In this document: one piece after another, positions 3,249-48,942 of the stretch
How positions within the stretch are numbered: the first letter of the stretch is position 1
How the letters are laid out: every line of letters begins with the position of its first letter
From: a phage
Sequence record: PQ724392.1
Strand: one strand, 5' to 3'
DNA length: 64,000 bases
Notes under the pieces: generated by a model
What the model saw: only the letters and a program-made list of their open reading frames with translations
The model's database searches: none
What the model was told of the DNA's origin: nothing
Made by a program: the position numbers and the translations under genes

Positions 3249-3863
3249 TTAGTTCAAAACAGTTAAATGCCAAACAGTATACAGGTTATTCAATGGGTGT
3301 GTTTCAATCAAGTCTACGCGGAGCGTAGTCCCAGCGGGAAACATAAACTCATCTTCATCATTAACCAGGTGCAAGTTTGACTTCCTGGTTGCTTCTGGAT
3401 ATGCACCATTGAACTCTTCAGGAGGAGCACCGCAAATCATTTTGAAGATTGCTTCCTGATAGTTATACGCATATGGTGCATTGTTTATACAGAAAATGTT
3501 CCTTGTGCCATAGAAACTGTATGATGCAAAATTTCTTGCAACCTGCCAGTCCCTGGAAAAACTCATTACACGATTGAATTCAATTGTTGCGCCAACATAT
3601 CTTAAATCTTCCAGGTATTCCATGGTTTTCTTTGATATACCACGGAACAATGCTGCCGGCGGCGCAGTATTCAGATTGTTGCGGATAATCCTGGACAAGT
3701 CTTCTTGAATCAGGTCGGGTTTATTTTCCATACACTGCCAGAGTACTGATTGCTCATTATCTGTATAAAGAGCATCAATCTCCGCTTGACATTGGTTACG
3801 AAAAGACTCACTAGAAGCGGCAGTGTCAATAATTCCATTCAAAACGTCATCAGTGTACAGCAT
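3249..3863 (-). CDS. ADP-ribosyltransferase, ModA/ModB-like
   Basis: R-S-E pattern (LFRGIS, SFS, EDEF); paralog of next gene; start moved to ATG 3863 because the promoter/leader repeat lies inside the longer ORF-track frame. Confidence 0.6.
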   Translation of the reverse strand: MLYTDDVLNGIIDTAASSESFRNQCQAEIDALYTDNEQSVLWQCMENKPDLIQEDLSRIIRNNLNTAPPAALFRGISKKTMEYLEDLRYVGATIEFNRVMSFSRDWQVARNFASYSFYGTRNIFCINNAPYAYNYQEAIFKMICGAPPEEFNGAYPEATRKSNLHLVNDEDEFMFPAGTTLRVDLIETHPLNNLYTVWHLTVLN

Positions 3864-3925
3864 TTTATTATCCTCATCAGTAGTTGATAGGAACATCTTA
3901 ACGTGTCTTATTGCTCTTGTACACA
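3864..3925 (-). promoter_or_regulatory. early promoter cassette (-35 GTGTAC, N18, -10 TAAGAT, conserved leader)
   Basis: Gene-sense reads GTGTAC-N18-TAAGAT then leader CCTATCAACTACTGATGAGGA before ATG; member of repeated cassette family. Confidence 0.45.
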
Positions 3926-4468
3926 GTCAAGAACATAATAATCACCAACAAATCCAGCATCAACTACCACGAATTTCTGGTCAACTGGAACAAACCATTC
4001 AAGCTCAGAATCAATCATGTCCATGTATTCTTCGCGCCTTAATGTAGCTGCCCGGACGGAACCAGAAGCTGTATTGAAGAATTCCAGTGGAACGTCAAGC
4101 GCGATTTTGCGCATCGCATCATGGTAACAAAAAGCTTTGGTCTGATTCAATCTGACGATAGTCCTTGTCACATATTCCATTGCAGCAAAATCCCTGGCAA
4201 TACCATAGTCTTCTGTAAAGGAGGTTACCCGTCCAAATTCAAAAGGTTGCATTGATTCTTTTGCTTCATCTAACAAATCAATCTCTTGCTGGGTTACTCC
4301 GCGCCACAAGACTGTATCGGGTATAGACAACCTTGACTTGATGATTGAGTTGACATTTGAATGCAAGGTCTTATCAACCTTTGATGTGCGGCATTCAAAT
4401 AATGAAGCTATCTCCATTTCACTAAATTTTAACTGGTTGGGTTCGGTATCAGATTTGATGATGTTCAT
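3908..4468 (-). CDS. ADP-ribosyltransferase, ModA/ModB-like
   Basis: 186 aa; R-S-E pattern (LWRGVT, SFT, ELEW); paralogous to 3249..3863. Confidence 0.6.
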   Translation of the reverse strand: MNIIKSDTEPNQLKFSEMEIASLFECRTSKVDKTLHSNVNSIIKSRLSIPDTVLWRGVTQQEIDLLDEAKESMQPFEFGRVTSFTEDYGIARDFAAMEYVTRTIVRLNQTKAFCYHDAMRKIALDVPLEFFNTASGSVRAATLRREEYMDMIDSELEWFVPVDQKFVVVDAGFVGDYYVLDCVQEQ

Positions 4469-5768: not shown

Positions 5769-6122
5769 TTAATCACACGAGCTGGAAGACGAATCACAGC
5801 TTCCCGAATCATAGGAGGAATAAGACGAATCACCGGTCCACGAACTAACTGCGGCGGCGGTGACCACAATCGAAGTAGTATCGATACTGCTTCGCGCTTG
5901 GGCTTGGGCTTGGGCTCTTTGTTCTTGCAGTCGAGTTAAACGTTTTTGTAGGTCTTCTTCTGACATTGTAGAATATAGGTCTTTTGATTTCGATTTGACC
6001 ACTTCTTCCATCATGCCGTCACCCATGTAAACATATTCTCTTAGCTTAACATCCGGCAGGCTAACCGGAACCACACCTTCACCAGGTTTAGTCTTGAATA
6101 AATTCTTGAGCCAACTAATCAT
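5769..6122 (-). CDS. hypothetical protein with Ser-rich C-terminal tail
   Basis: 117-aa ORF ending DSSYSSYDSGSCDSSSSSCD. Confidence 0.35.
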   Translation of the reverse strand: MISWLKNLFKTKPGEGVVPVSLPDVKLREYVYMGDGMMEEVVKSKSKDLYSTMSEEDLQKRLTRLQEQRAQAQAQARSSIDTTSIVVTAAAVSSWTGDSSYSSYDSGSCDSSSSSCD

Positions 6123-6316
6123 AGGAAACCTCGTTTAAATTCAACTTGACCATCATCATAACGGATTTCAATATTGAATTCTAAAGAGTCATCGTCATGC
6201 ATCATGAATGAATGTACGATAACTTCATCAAACACACCCAGACCATACTTAAAATGGACATCATGAGCAATAATTTCATCTAAAGCTTTGTTTGGTTTAA
6301 TCCAACGGTTTAACAT
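6119..6316 (-). CDS. hypothetical protein
   Basis: 65-aa ORF, stop overlaps next start. Confidence 0.35.
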   Translation of the reverse strand: MLNRWIKPNKALDEIIAHDVHFKYGLGVFDEVIVHSFMMHDDDSLEFNIEIRYDDGQVEFKRGFL

Positions 6317-6392
6317 AGTATTCTCCTCTGTAATTGAAATAATTATACCGCTTCTATTAAAAGCAAAAAGGGAACCCGAAGGTTCCCTATAA

Positions 6393-6626
6393 TTAAACTA
6401 CTGGGGTAGGCGTAAACATCGCCGCGTTCTTAGTTCGCCAATCAGCTGCACTAGACGCTACGGTGACATAAGCGGCCTTTTCGGAAGGAAAAGTCTGATA
6501 GTGTGCATTCGCAATACGATGCTCATTTGAATAGATTTCAAACGGAACAGATACTTCAACACCTTTAACTTCTTTACCTTCACCAGCTGGATGCGTAAAG
6601 GTTTTGATATTAACGAAACCACCCAT
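6393..6626 (-). CDS. soc: small outer capsid protein Soc
   Basis: 77 aa; VNIKTF ... AHYQTFPSEKAAY matches remembered T4 Soc; TATAAATA late promoter upstream. Confidence 0.8.
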   Translation of the reverse strand: MGGFVNIKTFTHPAGEGKEVKGVEVSVPFEIYSNEHRIANAHYQTFPSEKAAYVTVASSAADWRTKNAAMFTPTPVV

Positions 6627-9028: not shown

Positions 9029-9388
9029 TTAACCTCGCTTCATGAAGGCATTAAAAATCTGGTCATCAATATCAGTAGGCAGTTCTTGAGCTTTAACCCA
9101 AGCCCCTTCCAGAATGTCATTTGCTTCAGTAGATATCATGACCCCAATTTCAGGGTTTCCGGTTATCCATGCTGCACAATCGCGTACATTCTTTTTATCA
9201 AATGGATAGCCACGAGTATCTTCATAAGGTCCACTCATTACCATAAATGAGCGAGCCTTTATAATAACATCATCTTTAACGATAATATAACCAATCGCCT
9301 GATTAAACCGAGGCTCACGAAATTCATAACGGGCATTACCATTATTATTGCTCACCAGTTCAAAATTCAGAAAATTATAATAACTCAT
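9029..9388 (-). CDS. hypothetical protein
   Basis: 119-aa ORF; C-terminus DDQIFNAFMKRG shared with next ORF. Confidence 0.4.
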   Translation of the reverse strand: MSYYNFLNFELVSNNNGNARYEFREPRFNQAIGYIIVKDDVIIKARSFMVMSGPYEDTRGYPFDKKNVRDCAAWITGNPEIGVMISTEANDILEGAWVKAQELPTDIDDQIFNAFMKRG

Positions 9389-9389
9389 A

Positions 9390-9830
9390 TTAATCTCGCT
9401 TCATGAAGGCATTAAAAATTTGGTCGTCAACTGAATATACAGGGGTTTCCAGAAGTTTCAAAAGACTGTTTTTAATGTACTTACCCGGGATACCCATATT
9501 AACAATACTGTCATTCAATTCATTATCAGGGTTGATGTCTTTAAATTCAAACCCATCAAATTCAACCTTGTCAGGAATACCATCAGCGAAAAAATAAACC
9601 AATTGGTGCATTGTATTGCGCGAAAATAATTTAGACTTGACCGCAATAAGTTCTTGCCAATGGTTTAATTCTTTGTTAAGAAGTTTATGAGCAAACGTAA
9701 TTCTATTATCACTATCAACAAGAAAATAACCCAGGTATTGAATGGGGTCGTCGCTCCAAAACATCCTGTATGCTTGTGCATTTTGATTTTTACAACGAAG
9801 TTTTTTGATAACTAAATTTCTGTTAATCAT
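9390..9830 (-). CDS. hypothetical protein
   Basis: Start moved to internal Met (MINRNL...) to avoid overlap with sp-like gene; C-terminus DDQIFNAFMKRD. Confidence 0.4.
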   Translation of the reverse strand: MINRNLVIKKLRCKNQNAQAYRMFWSDDPIQYLGYFLVDSDNRITFAHKLLNKELNHWQELIAVKSKLFSRNTMHQLVYFFADGIPDKVEFDGFEFKDINPDNELNDSIVNMGIPGKYIKNSLLKLLETPVYSVDDQIFNAFMKRD

Positions 9831-9831
9831 T

Positions 9832-10125
9832 TTATTCACCTGTAACCCATTGAACAATTTTGCTATTGTCAAATGAAGCATCGCAATACAGAACATAGTT
9901 ATACTGCATAACGCCACCAGAAGTCAATTGGTCAGATACTTCTTTAACCATATCAGGGCGGTCACGTTTAGTTATGTTCATGATATCAGCATAAATCTGG
10001 TGTTCAACATCAGTCTGGTCAGCAGTCATAGACCACTCACAAAGGTCTTTATCAAGTCCAGCGGTGACAGGTGCTGTGCCACAAGATGCTACGGCAAAAA
10101 TTGCTGCGATAATTAACTTTTTCAT
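9832..10125 (-). CDS. sp: Spackle-like secreted protein
   Basis: 97 aa (T4 Sp size) with N-terminal signal peptide and VASC lipobox-like motif; position between 61 and 41. Confidence 0.45.
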   Translation of the reverse strand: MKKLIIAAIFAVASCGTAPVTAGLDKDLCEWSMTADQTDVEHQIYADIMNITKRDRPDMVKEVSDQLTSGGVMQYNYVLYCDASFDNSKIVQWVTGE

Positions 10126-44630: not shown

Positions 44631-44906
44631 TTATAATCTTTTAAATTTGAAACAATACATTGCAAATAAATCAGAAAAATGTCTATCAACCCATATTCTT
44701 TGCACTGGACTAGTCACAGTCAGCATATAATGTGATTTTTGTAAATTTATTCCATTTTTATTCGGGCATTCTTTATTAACAGAATGGTACGTGCTTGCTA
44801 CTATTTCAATTTCCCTTTCATATCTCTCGCTATCTGTTTGTGTGGGAATAAATGCAATTCCAGCAATAACAAAAATAGAGATATACGTCCAAACCTTGTA
44901 TACCAT
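44631..44906 (-). CDS. small membrane protein
   Basis: 91 aa with N-terminal hydrophobic helix; between tk and rI. Confidence 0.4.
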   Translation of the reverse strand: MVYKVWTYISIFVIAGIAFIPTQTDSERYEREIEIVASTYHSVNKECPNKNGINLQKSHYMLTVTSPVQRIWVDRHFSDLFAMYCFKFKRL

Positions 44907-44913
44907 GCGAACC

Positions 44914-45486
44914 TCAGCTTGTTAATTCGAGCCAATGTTTTCTGCATAAAGATACGTACGATTCATTCCCACCGACTAACACTTGCTCGCCGTCCTTTAC
45001 AGCAGCACCGTCGATTACTCTCGCGGTCATGGTTGCTTTCCGGCCGCAATGACAGACGCCCTTTAATTCAACCAGTTTATCCGAAATAGCCAGAAGTCTG
45101 GCTGAACCGGGAAATAATTGACCCCGAAAATCTGTTCTTAACCCGTAACACATAACGGGGATATTGTAATTATCAACCACTTGAGCTAACTGGTCAATTT
45201 GCTCTGGTAACAAAAATTGAGCTTCATCGACCAGGACGCAATGGATATCCTTTTGAGACTCGGCCCATTTATAGAATTCAAACAGGTTCATGTCGGCCGT
45301 TACCAGGTTTGCTTCCTGGCTAATACCAATACGTGATTTAATTTCAGATTCCGAGTCCCGATTATCAATAACAGGTTTTAGCAAAAGCACACTCATTCCA
45401 CGCTCTTTATAGGAATAAGCTGCAGTCAGCAATGAAGCTGTTTTGCCTGCATTCATTGCTGCGTAATGATAAATTAAACTCGCCAT
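44914..45486 (-). CDS. tk: thymidine kinase
   Basis: 190 aa; MASLIYHYAAMNAGKTASLL P-loop; extended match to remembered T4 Tk. Confidence 0.9.
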   Translation of the reverse strand: MASLIYHYAAMNAGKTASLLTAAYSYKERGMSVLLLKPVIDNRDSESEIKSRIGISQEANLVTADMNLFEFYKWAESQKDIHCVLVDEAQFLLPEQIDQLAQVVDNYNIPVMCYGLRTDFRGQLFPGSARLLAISDKLVELKGVCHCGRKATMTARVIDGAAVKDGEQVLVGGNESYVSLCRKHWLELTS

Positions 45487-45495
45487 ATCACCTTC

Positions 45496-45681
45496 TTAAA
45501 GCGTATTCACATAAGCTATTAATTCGTTTTCTTTCGCATCAAATCGATTAGCAAATTCTTCCTGATGTTCGGCATCTATCGGACCATATTCATCGTAAAA
45601 AGCGTTTGCTTCTGTATGCTCATCCAAAAGCTCATGGATAAGCTCAAACAATCTACTTTTCTGACTAATACTTAAACTCAT
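45496..45681 (-). CDS. hypothetical protein
   Basis: 61-aa ORF co-oriented. Confidence 0.35.
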   Translation of the reverse strand: MSLSISQKSRLFELIHELLDEHTEANAFYDEYGPIDAEHQEEFANRFDAKENELIAYVNTL

Positions 45682-45884
45682 TTCGGTTCACCATATCGCA
45701 CAAATTTAGGATGTTCGCAATAACCAGAATGAAAACCTTCACCCTTATGATTAGAACATCCTTTATTAGAACAGTACCACCAGTAATCAAATTCACATTC
45801 CATTTCGTCGTTGCATAAAGCTGCGATTACTGGCCATTCGCATTTTTCACATTTGGCCGTTTTAAGAATTCGGGCTTGGCTCAT
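45678..45884 (-). CDS. Cys-rich small protein
   Basis: 68 aa with multiple CxxC pairs. Confidence 0.4.
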   Translation of the reverse strand: MSQARILKTAKCEKCEWPVIAALCNDEMECEFDYWWYCSNKGCSNHKGEGFHSGYCEHPKFVRYGEPK

Positions 45885-46078
45885 AATTCAATTCCGTCCA
45901 TAGCCAAAATTCTTTTTCGTTGGGCCTTGAGAGCTTCATTAGCCCGGTCATAATCTTCTTGACTACCGCTAGGCTGTAAAGCCGCTACTTTTTTGGCCAA
46001 GTGAATAAGCTTATCCAAGTTTTCAACAATACGTTCTTGTTCTTCATTCAGGCTCATAACCATTGCACCTTTAAGCAA
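45881..46078 (-). CDS. hypothetical protein
   Basis: 65-aa ORF co-oriented. Confidence 0.35.
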   Translation of the reverse strand: MLKGAMVMSLNEEQERIVENLDKLIHLAKKVAALQPSGSQEDYDRANEALKAQRKRILAMDGIEL

Positions 46079-46266
46079 TATTCTTCTACATGCTGTTTAC
46101 GTTTATTTTTATCTATAAAAGTATATTCAACAAATGTTCCAATATAGTCTTTATCTACATCATGTGGACTATTAATTGGGCATTTAGTACGGCAAATGCG
46201 TTCCCATTGACGAATAATTTCCACCTTGTTTTTAGGGTCAAACGGATGCGGGTAATGTGCTTTCAT
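46054..46266 (-). CDS. hypothetical protein
   Basis: 70-aa ORF co-oriented. Confidence 0.35.
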   Translation of the reverse strand: MKAHYPHPFDPKNKVEIIRQWERICRTKCPINSPHDVDKDYIGTFVEYTFIDKNKRKQHVEEYCLKVQWL

Positions 46267-46717
46267 AATCCACCACTATTAAATCAATATCAGGAGTAAA
46301 CATGTCGATTAATTTAGAAACCTTTTCCCAATCTCCACCTGCAATACCACAACCAATGCGAGGAATGTAAATTACCGGTTTAAACAAAAGGGTTTCTGCT
46401 TGTAGATTTAATTCTATCATACAATTTACTAAAGCACCATAATCAAGATTAGGGCCCGGTTCATATTGGGTGTACAAATTATAACACATACCAAACCCAG
46501 TAGGTTTATGTTTAAAAACAATAGACATATCGCCTAATTTATCACGAGAACCATATTCAGTGGTGGTTTTATCTATTTCTAAAACTTTTGGATAGGCCTT
46601 CGCCAACTGTCCAGCTACACCAGAACCCATTGTGTGAAAGCAGTTGCAACCATGAGCAATAATATTGCCTTGAAGAAAGAGGGCGACGATATCGCCCTTA
46701 ATATACTGGGTAATCAT
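46238..46717 (-). CDS. macro-domain protein (ADP-ribose binding/processing fold)
   Basis: 159 aa; HGCNCFHTMGSGVAGQ and PRIGCGIAGG match the two glycine-rich macro-domain loops; ATGA overlap with upstream gene. Confidence 0.6.
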   Translation of the reverse strand: MITQYIKGDIVALFLQGNIIAHGCNCFHTMGSGVAGQLAKAYPKVLEIDKTTTEYGSRDKLGDMSIVFKHKPTGFGMCYNLYTQYEPGPNLDYGALVNCMIELNLQAETLLFKPVIYIPRIGCGIAGGDWEKVSKLIDMFTPDIDLIVVDYESTLPASV

Positions 46718-47073
46718 TTAGAGTTCAATCCTCTATTATATGAATCCACTAACCTGTCAACCATACTGGTGCAGGCCGCCTTATATTTTGCACTTGAAAG
46801 AATGCAATCCATTTCAAATAATTTCTTTTCATATTTGTTGGATAATACATTCTTTTTCAAAAGTGTATGTTCAACATCATTTTGGCCATCTTTATATGCC
46901 GCGGTGAGCTTGGCACTGAACTGGATTATACAATCCACATTGCTTGCTGCGCAATAATCTTTGGCCGTCCTCGTTGCATATTCTATGATGCTGTTGTTGT
47001 CGTCGCTCTGTACTGAAGCTATTCCTCCCGTGCTGAATACTAACCCTATGGCTAAAGTGATAACTCTTACCAT
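46714..47073 (-). CDS. secreted/periplasmic protein
   Basis: 119 aa with N-terminal signal peptide. Confidence 0.4.
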   Translation of the reverse strand: MVRVITLAIGLVFSTGGIASVQSDDNNSIIEYATRTAKDYCAASNVDCIIQFSAKLTAAYKDGQNDVEHTLLKKNVLSNKYEKKLFEMDCILSSAKYKAACTSMVDRLVDSYNRGLNSK

Positions 47074-47075
47074 TT

Positions 47076-47618
47076 TTAATCCACCGTTTTTAATAGGCCT
47101 CGTGATTTTAAGTAGTTAGCTTTTTCTAGGACCTGTGAAGCATACGTATTACCAGCTTTCACATTCCATCCTGCGTTATATGATGATAGTGTTTTCCTTA
47201 TATCCCCCTTATGAATATTCAACCAGTATGAAAGCTCAATGTAAGCCCAGCGTGCACTGTTCTCTCTCTTGCTTATCATCTTGATTATTTCTTTATCTGT
47301 CATTGTCCACCCAACCTGTTTCACGCGTTCGCGCACGGTTGGAAGATAATTTTGGAATATACCATATGCATGATGCTTATCTTTATTTAATCCAGTATTA
47401 ATCCCAGCAGAACTCTCCTGCCAGGTTAAACCAGCCATGATATATCCCAAACCATTATGTTGGTGCGGATTTTCTTTGTACTTACCATTTTTCTGGAACT
47501 GTTCTCCAAACGCATAAGCATATTGGAGGTTTTCCATTTGTTCATTACTGAAAGTAGGCTCTACGCTATGGGCAGACATACTAACTGTCAATAGTAAGGT
47601 GGCGATTACTTTTTTCAT
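47076..47618 (-). CDS. secreted lytic transglycosylase-like protein
   Basis: 180 aa; signal peptide; TWQESSAG ... AYGIFQ resembles SLT catalytic Glu-Ser and GLMQ-like motifs. Confidence 0.4.
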   Translation of the reverse strand: MKKVIATLLLTVSMSAHSVEPTFSNEQMENLQYAYAFGEQFQKNGKYKENPHQHNGLGYIMAGLTWQESSAGINTGLNKDKHHAYGIFQNYLPTVRERVKQVGWTMTDKEIIKMISKRENSARWAYIELSYWLNIHKGDIRKTLSSYNAGWNVKAGNTYASQVLEKANYLKSRGLLKTVD

Positions 47619-47628
47619 GAATTCCCCA

Positions 47629-48087
47629 TTAGATATAAATCACTTTTGTGCTAATTTTTCCTTCCAGACGATTAGAGTTAACAAACGCCATACGACAACA
47701 CATGGTCGGAGACTTCCCAGGAATAGCGGGGTTAACTGTCATTCCTAACCACAGGTTCTTGTCTGTAATTTCCAGACGAAGTGGACGGTAGTTCACATTC
47801 GGGTCAATTTGTGCTTCAACTTCCGGGAGTGGTTTCATCTCCAAGAATTCAACGATTTCTTTTACATGTGGTGTGATTTTTCCAAACAAGTCAAAAACAT
47901 ATTGTTCATCAATTTCACGTTGGATTGCACGGTCCAACAGATGTGGACTGTACTTAATGAAGAATGCCTCAAGGCCTGCTTCTTTACAAGCCTTGTTGAT
48001 AGCATTATTAATTTTGAGGAACTCCGTTTCAAAAATGCGACGAAGTTTATTGCGGCGAATGTAAACACTTGAATCGATAGTAGTCAT
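47629..48087 (-). CDS. regB: endoribonuclease RegB
   Basis: Start set at ATG 48087 (MTTIDSSVYIRRNKLRRIFETEF...), 152 aa; matches remembered T4 RegB; promoter cassette lies inside the longer ORF-track frame. Confidence 0.7.
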   Translation of the reverse strand: MTTIDSSVYIRRNKLRRIFETEFLKINNAINKACKEAGLEAFFIKYSPHLLDRAIQREIDEQYVFDLFGKITPHVKEIVEFLEMKPLPEVEAQIDPNVNYRPLRLEITDKNLWLGMTVNPAIPGKSPTMCCRMAFVNSNRLEGKISTKVIYI

Positions 48088-48143
48088 AATTATCTCCTTT
48101 TGTTTGATGGGATAATCATAACTCATTTCAATCTGCTTGTACA

Positions 48144-48144
<1 letters not shown>
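48088..48144 (-). promoter_or_regulatory. early promoter cassette (-35 GTGTAC, -10 TATGAT)
   Basis: GTGTAC-N18-TATGAT then TATCCCATCAAACAAAAGGAGATAATT before regB ATG. Confidence 0.5.
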
Positions 48145-48723
<579 letters not shown>

Positions 48724-48727
<4 letters not shown>

Positions 48728-48942
48728 TTCACTTCCTCATCAGATGCATTATCATATTCTACCAAACGAAGGCCATCATATCCGCCACGAACAGAGATAT
48801 ATGTACTCGGATAAACAATTTCTTTACCATTCCATTGGCCACCGTCCCAACATTCCATAAAGCCTTGTTCGCCCTGTTCGTGGAACCAGTCAACAAACAT
48901 CTTCAGAGCTTCTTCAGAACCTTCAATAGTCAATTTAGACAT
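48724..48942 (-). CDS. hypothetical protein
   Basis: 72-aa ORF co-oriented. Confidence 0.35.

Follow-up and report, generated by a model that had tools for sequence, protein, structure and literature searches.

A macrodomain protein of the Tk.4/AdfM group in a T4-like Gaprivervirus phage and its likely role against the DarTG2 defence

Introduction

What does a small macrodomain gene do in the genome of a phage that also encodes ADP-ribosyltransferases of its own? The question is raised by tk.4 (adfM), which encodes a stand-alone macrodomain protein of 159 residues and occupies 46238..46717 on the minus strand, with an ATG start, in a 64,000-nucleotide stretch of phage DNA (record PQ724392.1), referred to here as the window. 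A first-pass annotation, made from the letters of the sequence, had described a macro-domain protein at this position, and its lead idea was that the protein forms a pair with the transferases of the same phage, as eraser or reader to their writer, with degradation of ADP-ribose-derived immune signals or reversal of host toxin ADP-ribosylation as alternatives. In the present analysis, it is considered likely that the protein removes the ADP-ribose marks of host DarT2 from phage DNA, acting as an orphan antitoxin. Three supports for this reading are established here: the protein has a macro fold, its gene is orthologous to T4 tk.4, and its active-site residues are conserved. T4 genetics and the activity of the bacterial enzyme SCO6735 are contributed by work from elsewhere.

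Macro fold and structural class

Profile search and structure prediction, which had been named beforehand as the analyses by which the macro-domain assignment could be refuted, both show a macro fold. Residues 22-136 align to the Pfam family Macro (PF01661) along positions 2-117 of its 118-position profile and score 33 bits, above the cutoff of 22 bits, with an E-value of 6.2e-8. The AlphaFold2 model, based on an alignment of 46 homologs from which the T4 sequence was left out, has a mean predicted local distance difference test score (pLDDT) of 93.6 and a predicted template modelling score (pTM) of 0.88, with strands and helices alternating as the macro fold expects, and it displays the three-layer alpha/beta architecture together with two glycine-rich ADP-ribose-binding loops. 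Translation and family alignment locate the first of these loops, HGCNCFHTMGSGVAGQ, at residues 22-37 (46607..46654, minus strand), where it carries the invariant H22, G23, N25, C26, G33, and A35, and the second, phosphate-binding loop, PRIGCGIAGG, at residues 119-128 (46334..46363, minus strand), where it carries the invariant P119, G122, and G124; both motifs had been quoted correctly in the first-pass annotation. A six-frame search with the tk.4 family profile found no second macrodomain in the window.

In a Foldseek comparison with the PDB, human TARG1 ranks at the top (E-value 5e-10, TM-score 0.72-0.82), followed by yeast Poa1p, BT1257, and the macrodomains of DarG. These nearest structural neighbours are all ALC1-like and stand apart from MacroD, viral, and PARG-type macrodomains. 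On the strength of this ranking, the modelled tk.4 product is placed in the ALC1-like class (TARG1, DarG, SCO6735/BT1257, and Poa1p) of the macro superfamily.

Orthology and distribution

Over the 2.8 kb around tk.4, the sequence shares 99.1% identity with Escherichia phage ECML-359 and about 95.6% with Shigella phage SP18, and the source phage is a T4-like member of the Straboviridae (Tevenvirinae, Gaprivervirus). In SP18, the counterpart is annotated as tk.4; its immediate neighbours are tk.3 and vs, with vs followed on the upstream side by vs.1 and regB, and tk is found downstream. The neighbours in the window are tk.3, vs, vs.1, and RegB by PHROG, so the gene does sit in the tk-regB interval to which it had first been assigned, and the order tk.3-tk.4-vs-vs.1-regB is common to the window, SP18, and T4. 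The window protein and T4 Tk.4 (NP_049723) share 56% identity and 74% positives over 155 residues without a single gap (E-value 1e-68). Judged by sequence and gene order, the window gene corresponds to T4 tk.4 as its positional ortholog and belongs to the T4 Tk.4/AdfM orthologous group.

Annotation of this group is uneven. PHROG 335, which matches the tk.4 product with an E-value of 1.1e-70, bears the label "phosphatase"; the GenBank record of T4 tk.4 notes that it "contains A1pp phosphatase motif"; and near-identical GenBank copies are named "macro domain-containing protein" in UPEC07 and "phosphatase" in phage 212, SP18, and P8. By tblastn, tk.4 homologs occur in 2,756 of 50,697 phage records, and the hosts of the phages that bear them include Escherichia, Klebsiella, Salmonella, Pseudomonas, Vibrio, Acinetobacter, and Aeromonas, among others. 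A bacterial homolog with 40% identity was found as a stand-alone gene on the chromosome of Pelagimonas phthalicica (6001..6459 of the stretch examined). No DarT-like toxin gene lies near it, the flanks consisting of unrelated housekeeping genes (redoxin, DUF455, peptidase M23, and tryptophan-halogenase-like), and this single example gives no evidence for a toxin-antitoxin origin of the Tk.4 family. Elsewhere, the Tk.4-like macrodomain gene adjoins a nicotinamide phosphoribosyltransferase gene in Acinetobacter phage phiAbaA1 and a ribose-phosphate pyrophosphokinase gene in Vibrio phage KIT04, which hints at a link to phage nicotinamide adenine dinucleotide (NAD)-salvage modules in some lineages.

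Evidence for a role against DarTG2

The experimental case comes from T4. When transposon mutants of T4 were screened by HIDEN-SEQ on bacteria expressing DarTG2, only tk.4 emerged as a significant hit, and T4 from which tk.4 had been cleanly deleted became sensitive to DarTG2. The authors renamed the gene adfM (anti-DarT factor, macrodomain) and proposed that its product removes ADP-ribose from DNA (bioRxiv 10.1101/2025.11.20.689424). This result fits an earlier prediction of a further factor, made because T4 lacking both adfA and adfN is still resistant to DarTG2 (PMC11825919). DarT2 ADP-ribosylates thymidine in single-stranded DNA, and this modification is taken off again by its cognate antitoxin, the macrodomain DarG2 (PMC11825919). 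Of the roles first suggested for the window protein, reversal of host toxin ADP-ribosylation is the best supported, through an experiment carried out on the T4 ortholog only (bioRxiv 10.1101/2025.11.20.689424).

The lead suggestion, in which the protein would erase or read the ADP-ribosylation carried out by the phage's own Alt, ModA, or ModB, has two points in its favour. ADP-ribosylation systems commonly have writer-eraser pairs, and the two transferases that had been reported at 3249..4468 are indeed there, identified by PHROG as ModA/ModB-like genes at 3249..3896 and 3908..4468. However, the analysis shows nothing that links tk.4 to these genes, which lie 42 kb away and share no operon with it, and homologs of tk.4 are spread over about 2,750 phage records from many lineages. 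The chemistry is also against it: Alt, ModA, and ModB act on arginine, and it is ARH/DraG-type enzymes that undo the N-glycosidic bond so formed, while we know of no macrodomain of the TARG1/DarG class that cleaves arginine-linked ADP-ribose. The T4 tk.4 phenotype, moreover, depended on a host defence (bioRxiv 10.1101/2025.11.20.689424). The lead idea of the first-pass annotation is therefore not upheld, and an eraser or reader of the phage's own marks is regarded as very improbable.

Active site and proposed mechanism

Fifteen positions are invariant across 47 family members (H22, G23, N25, C26, G33, A35, G62, N80, Y82, Q84, G88, P119, G122, G124, and W130). Among them, Gln84, in the motif NLYTQ (codon at 46466..46468, minus strand), aligns with the catalytic K84 of TARG1, the catalytic K80 of DarG, and the essential Q85 of SCO6735, both in profile-to-PDB alignments and in MAFFT alignments with PDB-derived sequences; the same alignments pair A126 with D125 of TARG1. 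H22, N25, G122, and G124 align with H24, N27, G126, and G128 of SCO6735, and N25 also aligns with N23 of PhiKZ AdfM. The 5-6-residue longer "mobile loop" that follows the catalytic Gln in SCO6735 and BT1257 is absent, and in these alignments the Tk.4 family is Gln-type like SCO6735 and short-looped like DarG and TARG1.

SCO6735 is a stand-alone macrodomain of Streptomyces that cleaves ADP-ribose off the thymidines of DNA and gives protection from DarT; its activity is abolished by Q85A or Q85E and strongly reduced by N27S and G128E, and the backbone of Val25 holds its catalytic water in position (PMC9411070). Host DarT2 of the DarTG2 system puts ADP-ribose on thymidine in single-stranded phage DNA, and by analogy with SCO6735 the window protein would bind the ADP-ribose on the DNA thymidine, accommodating the diphosphate and distal ribose between its two glycine-rich loops. 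Gln84, held by Asn25, would then position the distal ribose, allowing water-mediated cleavage between ribose and thymine as proposed for SCO6735, and with the block removed, phage replication would proceed. We infer hydrolysis by the window protein and by T4 Tk.4 themselves from T4 genetics in combination with SCO6735.

Neutralisation of DarT2 could instead act mainly through binding and inhibition of the toxin, not through hydrolysis. Catalytically dead variants of three related macrodomains (SCO6735 Q85A, DarG K80A, and TARG1 K84A) inhibit DarT in vitro, SCO6735 most strongly (PMC9411070). Yet the strict invariance of N25, Q84, G122, and G124 argues for selection on catalysis, and the window protein does not have the C-terminal DarT-binding domain of DarG. 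We give inhibition as the main mode of action only a very slight chance.

With hydrolysis of DarT2 marks as the preferred reading, the range of linkages that might be attacked also deserves attention. Hydrolysis of thymine-linked ADP-ribose has been demonstrated for TARG1, DarG, and SCO6735 (PMC9411070), and the same three enzymes act both on this DNA linkage and on uracil-linked ADP-ribose on RNA (PMC13036486); hydrolysis of base-linked ADP-ribose appears to be a common activity of the ALC1-like class. The window protein might accordingly erase base-linked ADP-ribose more broadly, including uracil-linked marks on RNA or the marks of toxins other than DarT2, with DarTG2 as one target of several; an enzyme that works alone and on the adduct itself would be indifferent to the toxin of origin, an argument already made for AdfN (PMC11825919). 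This proposal is an extension of the best explanation and no true alternative to it, and the literature searched did not reveal any anti-phage toxin of bacteria that places ADP-ribose on uracil; it is judged quite unlikely.

Several observations weigh against removal of DarT2 marks by the window protein. For the Tk.4 family, the evidence is genetic and not enzymatic, and it comes from T4 in one preprint. Identity to T4 Tk.4 is only 56%, and the phosphate-binding loop differs between the two, being GCGIAGGDW in the window protein, as in the family consensus, and GAGIGKGNW in T4. Identity to biochemically characterised thymidine-ADP-ribose hydrolases is only 19-29%; the lysines K34 and K89, which position DNA in SCO6735, are not kept (S32 and G88 in the window protein), although other basic residues may take their place; and the missing mobile loop is a further departure from SCO6735 and BT1257. 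Finally, a comparative-genomics survey by Iyer et al. argues that, in most cases, the targets of phage macrodomains are small derivatives of ADP-ribose and not macromolecular adducts (PMC9503650).

The general argument of that survey (PMC9503650), the similarity to Poa1p, and the legacy annotation as an A1pp phosphatase together favour a substrate other than DNA adducts, such as ADP-ribose-1''-phosphate, O-acetyl-ADP-ribose, or the Thoeris signals gcADPR or His-ADPR. The "phosphatase" label, however, is an annotation by homology, and the position of Poa1p F152 is taken by Ala126. To our knowledge, T4 RNA repair (Pnkp/Rnl1) yields no ADP-ribose-1''-phosphate, which also counts against such a substrate, as does the fact that no macrodomain hydrolase of Thoeris signals was found in the literature searched. 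In T4, both the single hit and the deletion phenotype of tk.4 were obtained against DarTG2, a DNA-modifying defence (bioRxiv 10.1101/2025.11.20.689424). Taken together, small ADP-ribose derivatives are unlikely to be the substrate. A link to degradation of Thoeris signals through another preprint (bioRxiv 10.64898/2026.06.04.730250) was considered and set aside, the macrodomain described there being the host ThsA effector and not a phage enzyme.

Comparison with characterised macrodomains

T4 Tk.4/AdfM, the closest characterised relative, occupies the same slot between tk.3 and vs and has all family-invariant residues, including H22, N25, Q84, G122, and G124. It belongs to a phage of the genus Tequatrovirus and not Gaprivervirus, 44% of its residues differ, and the window protein is 4 residues longer at the C-terminus. 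SCO6735 of Streptomyces coelicolor (PDB 5E3B) and BT1257 (PDB 2FG1/2AFC), encoded by bacterial chromosomal genes and not by phages, share only 25-29% identity with the window protein, and strict membership in their subclass was rejected, since the long mobile loop and equivalents of K34/K89 are absent.

The DarG macrodomains (Thermus aquaticus 5M31/5M3E and Mycobacterium tuberculosis 5M3I) are 19-22% identical to the window protein and have the catalytic Lys80 where the latter has Gln84. DarG also possesses a C-terminal DarT-binding domain and is encoded beside darT, whereas the window protein, at 159 residues and with vs and tk.3 as neighbours, has neither. With the NCBIfam model of DarG (NF048014), the window protein reaches 28.5 bits, short of the cutoff of 250, and only model positions 3-141 of 338 are matched. 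Identity with DarG was rejected on these four counts: Gln in place of Lys80, the missing C-terminal domain, the sub-cutoff score, and the lack of a darT neighbour. Human TARG1/OARD1 (PDB 4J5R/4J5S), about 24% identical, has the PRIGCG motif in common with the window protein, but its K84/D125 dyad is replaced by Q84/A126, and identity with TARG1 was likewise rejected for want of the dyad. Yeast Poa1p (PDB 6LFQ-6LFU), an ADP-ribose-1''-phosphate phosphatase, contains a large insertion not found in the window protein. In a partial alignment covering residues 4-78 and 116-148, the residues highlighted by its crystal structures correspond to H22 (His23, kept), T29 (Ser30, similar), and A126 (Phe152, changed). 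The picture is mixed, and with the Phe152 equivalent missing, the protein was not filed as a Poa1p.

A second phage protein named AdfM, gp104 of PhiKZ, is, like Tk.4, a stand-alone phage macrodomain that counters DarTG2; it removes DarT2 marks from DNA in vitro and is imported into the phage nucleus (PMC13309987). Translated from the published construct, gp104 is closely DarG-like (E-value 9e-25 to M. tuberculosis DarG), has a catalytic Lys (FPTK), and is about 21% identical to the window protein. From these comparisons, the name "AdfM" is seen to cover two lineages within one structural class, the Gln-type Tk.4 and the Lys-type gp104, and gp104 was probably acquired independently of Tk.4. A bolder proposal, which we consider doubtful, is that the Tk.4 family (Gln-type, with a short loop and without the SCO6735 lysines) forms a third lineage of base-ADP-ribose hydrolases with a mechanism of its own, one that phages would have acquired separately from the AdfM of PhiKZ, which is of the Lys type and derived from DarG.

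Genomic context and other features of the window

Upstream of tk.4 lies vs, the valyl-tRNA synthetase modifier gene (46714..47073, minus strand; PHROG 1256, E-value 2e-32), and downstream lies tk.3 (46054..46266, minus strand; PHROG 2008, E-value 3e-40), both serving here as synteny markers only; vs.1 and RegB were recognised by PHROG 600 and PHROG 1323, respectively. Read from the sequence, the stop codon of vs overlaps the start codon of tk.4 in the tetranucleotide ATGA (46714..46717, minus strand), which suggests that tk.4 may be co-transcribed and translationally coupled with vs. Co-transcription probably extends to the vs-regB gene block. At its 3' end, tk.4 overlaps tk.3 by 29 nucleotides, and an identical 29-nucleotide overlap is annotated in SP18. 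The guanine-cytosine (GC) content of tk.4 is 37.5%, compared with 39.7% for the window. In 44800..48800, neither promoter-like sites (14 versus 13.3 expected from shuffled sequence) nor terminator-like sites (3 versus 2.9) occur in excess, and since these counts match shuffled sequence, the scan says nothing about transcription signals in the tk.4 region. One terminator-like, GC-rich palindrome with an 8-bp stem, AGGGCGATATCGTCGCCCT, lies inside codons 7-13 of tk.4 (46680..46698, minus strand), such sites being at chance frequency in the region. In the T4 HIDEN-SEQ work, no gene was depleted as strongly in minimal medium as vs (bioRxiv 10.1101/2025.11.20.689424).

Two further features were recorded in the window. 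Two tandem open reading frames of 119 residues (9029..9388, minus strand) and 175 residues (9390..9917, minus strand) occupy the interval from 61.1 to sp, which in T4 holds just one gene, 61.2 (AdfA, anti-DarT factor). Both end in DDQIFNAFMKRG/D, comparable to the C-terminus of T4 gp61.2, IDDQIFNAFMNRG, and are otherwise barely similar to it (tblastn E-values 0.001 and 0.008); they may represent a duplicated or split, fast-evolving AdfA-like pair. An open reading frame of 65 residues (45881..46078, minus strand) lies in about 164 bp (45887..46050) that have no counterpart in SP18, as a small insertion/deletion reading frame flanked by tk.3 and the genes on the tk.2 side. It also accounts for the coverage of just 93-94% of the region by the best database matches.

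Significance

Annotated copies of tk.4/adfM are already on record for hundreds of related phages, and the function of the gene has recently been assigned in T4; in this respect, the finding is already known. The analysis confirms the conserved T-even anti-DarTG2 macrodomain in this Gaprivervirus and adds little beyond that. For specialists, it is useful to recognise that "AdfM" denotes two lineages with about 20% identity, a Tk.4 type with Gln and a gp104 type with a DarG-like Lys. If the Tk.4 family did prove to be a third hydrolase lineage, its substrates might include more than DarT2 marks, such as ADP-ribose attached to uracil in RNA or the adducts of unknown toxins, and such a wider range would help explain why the gene has been retained in about 2,750 phage genomes across many host genera.
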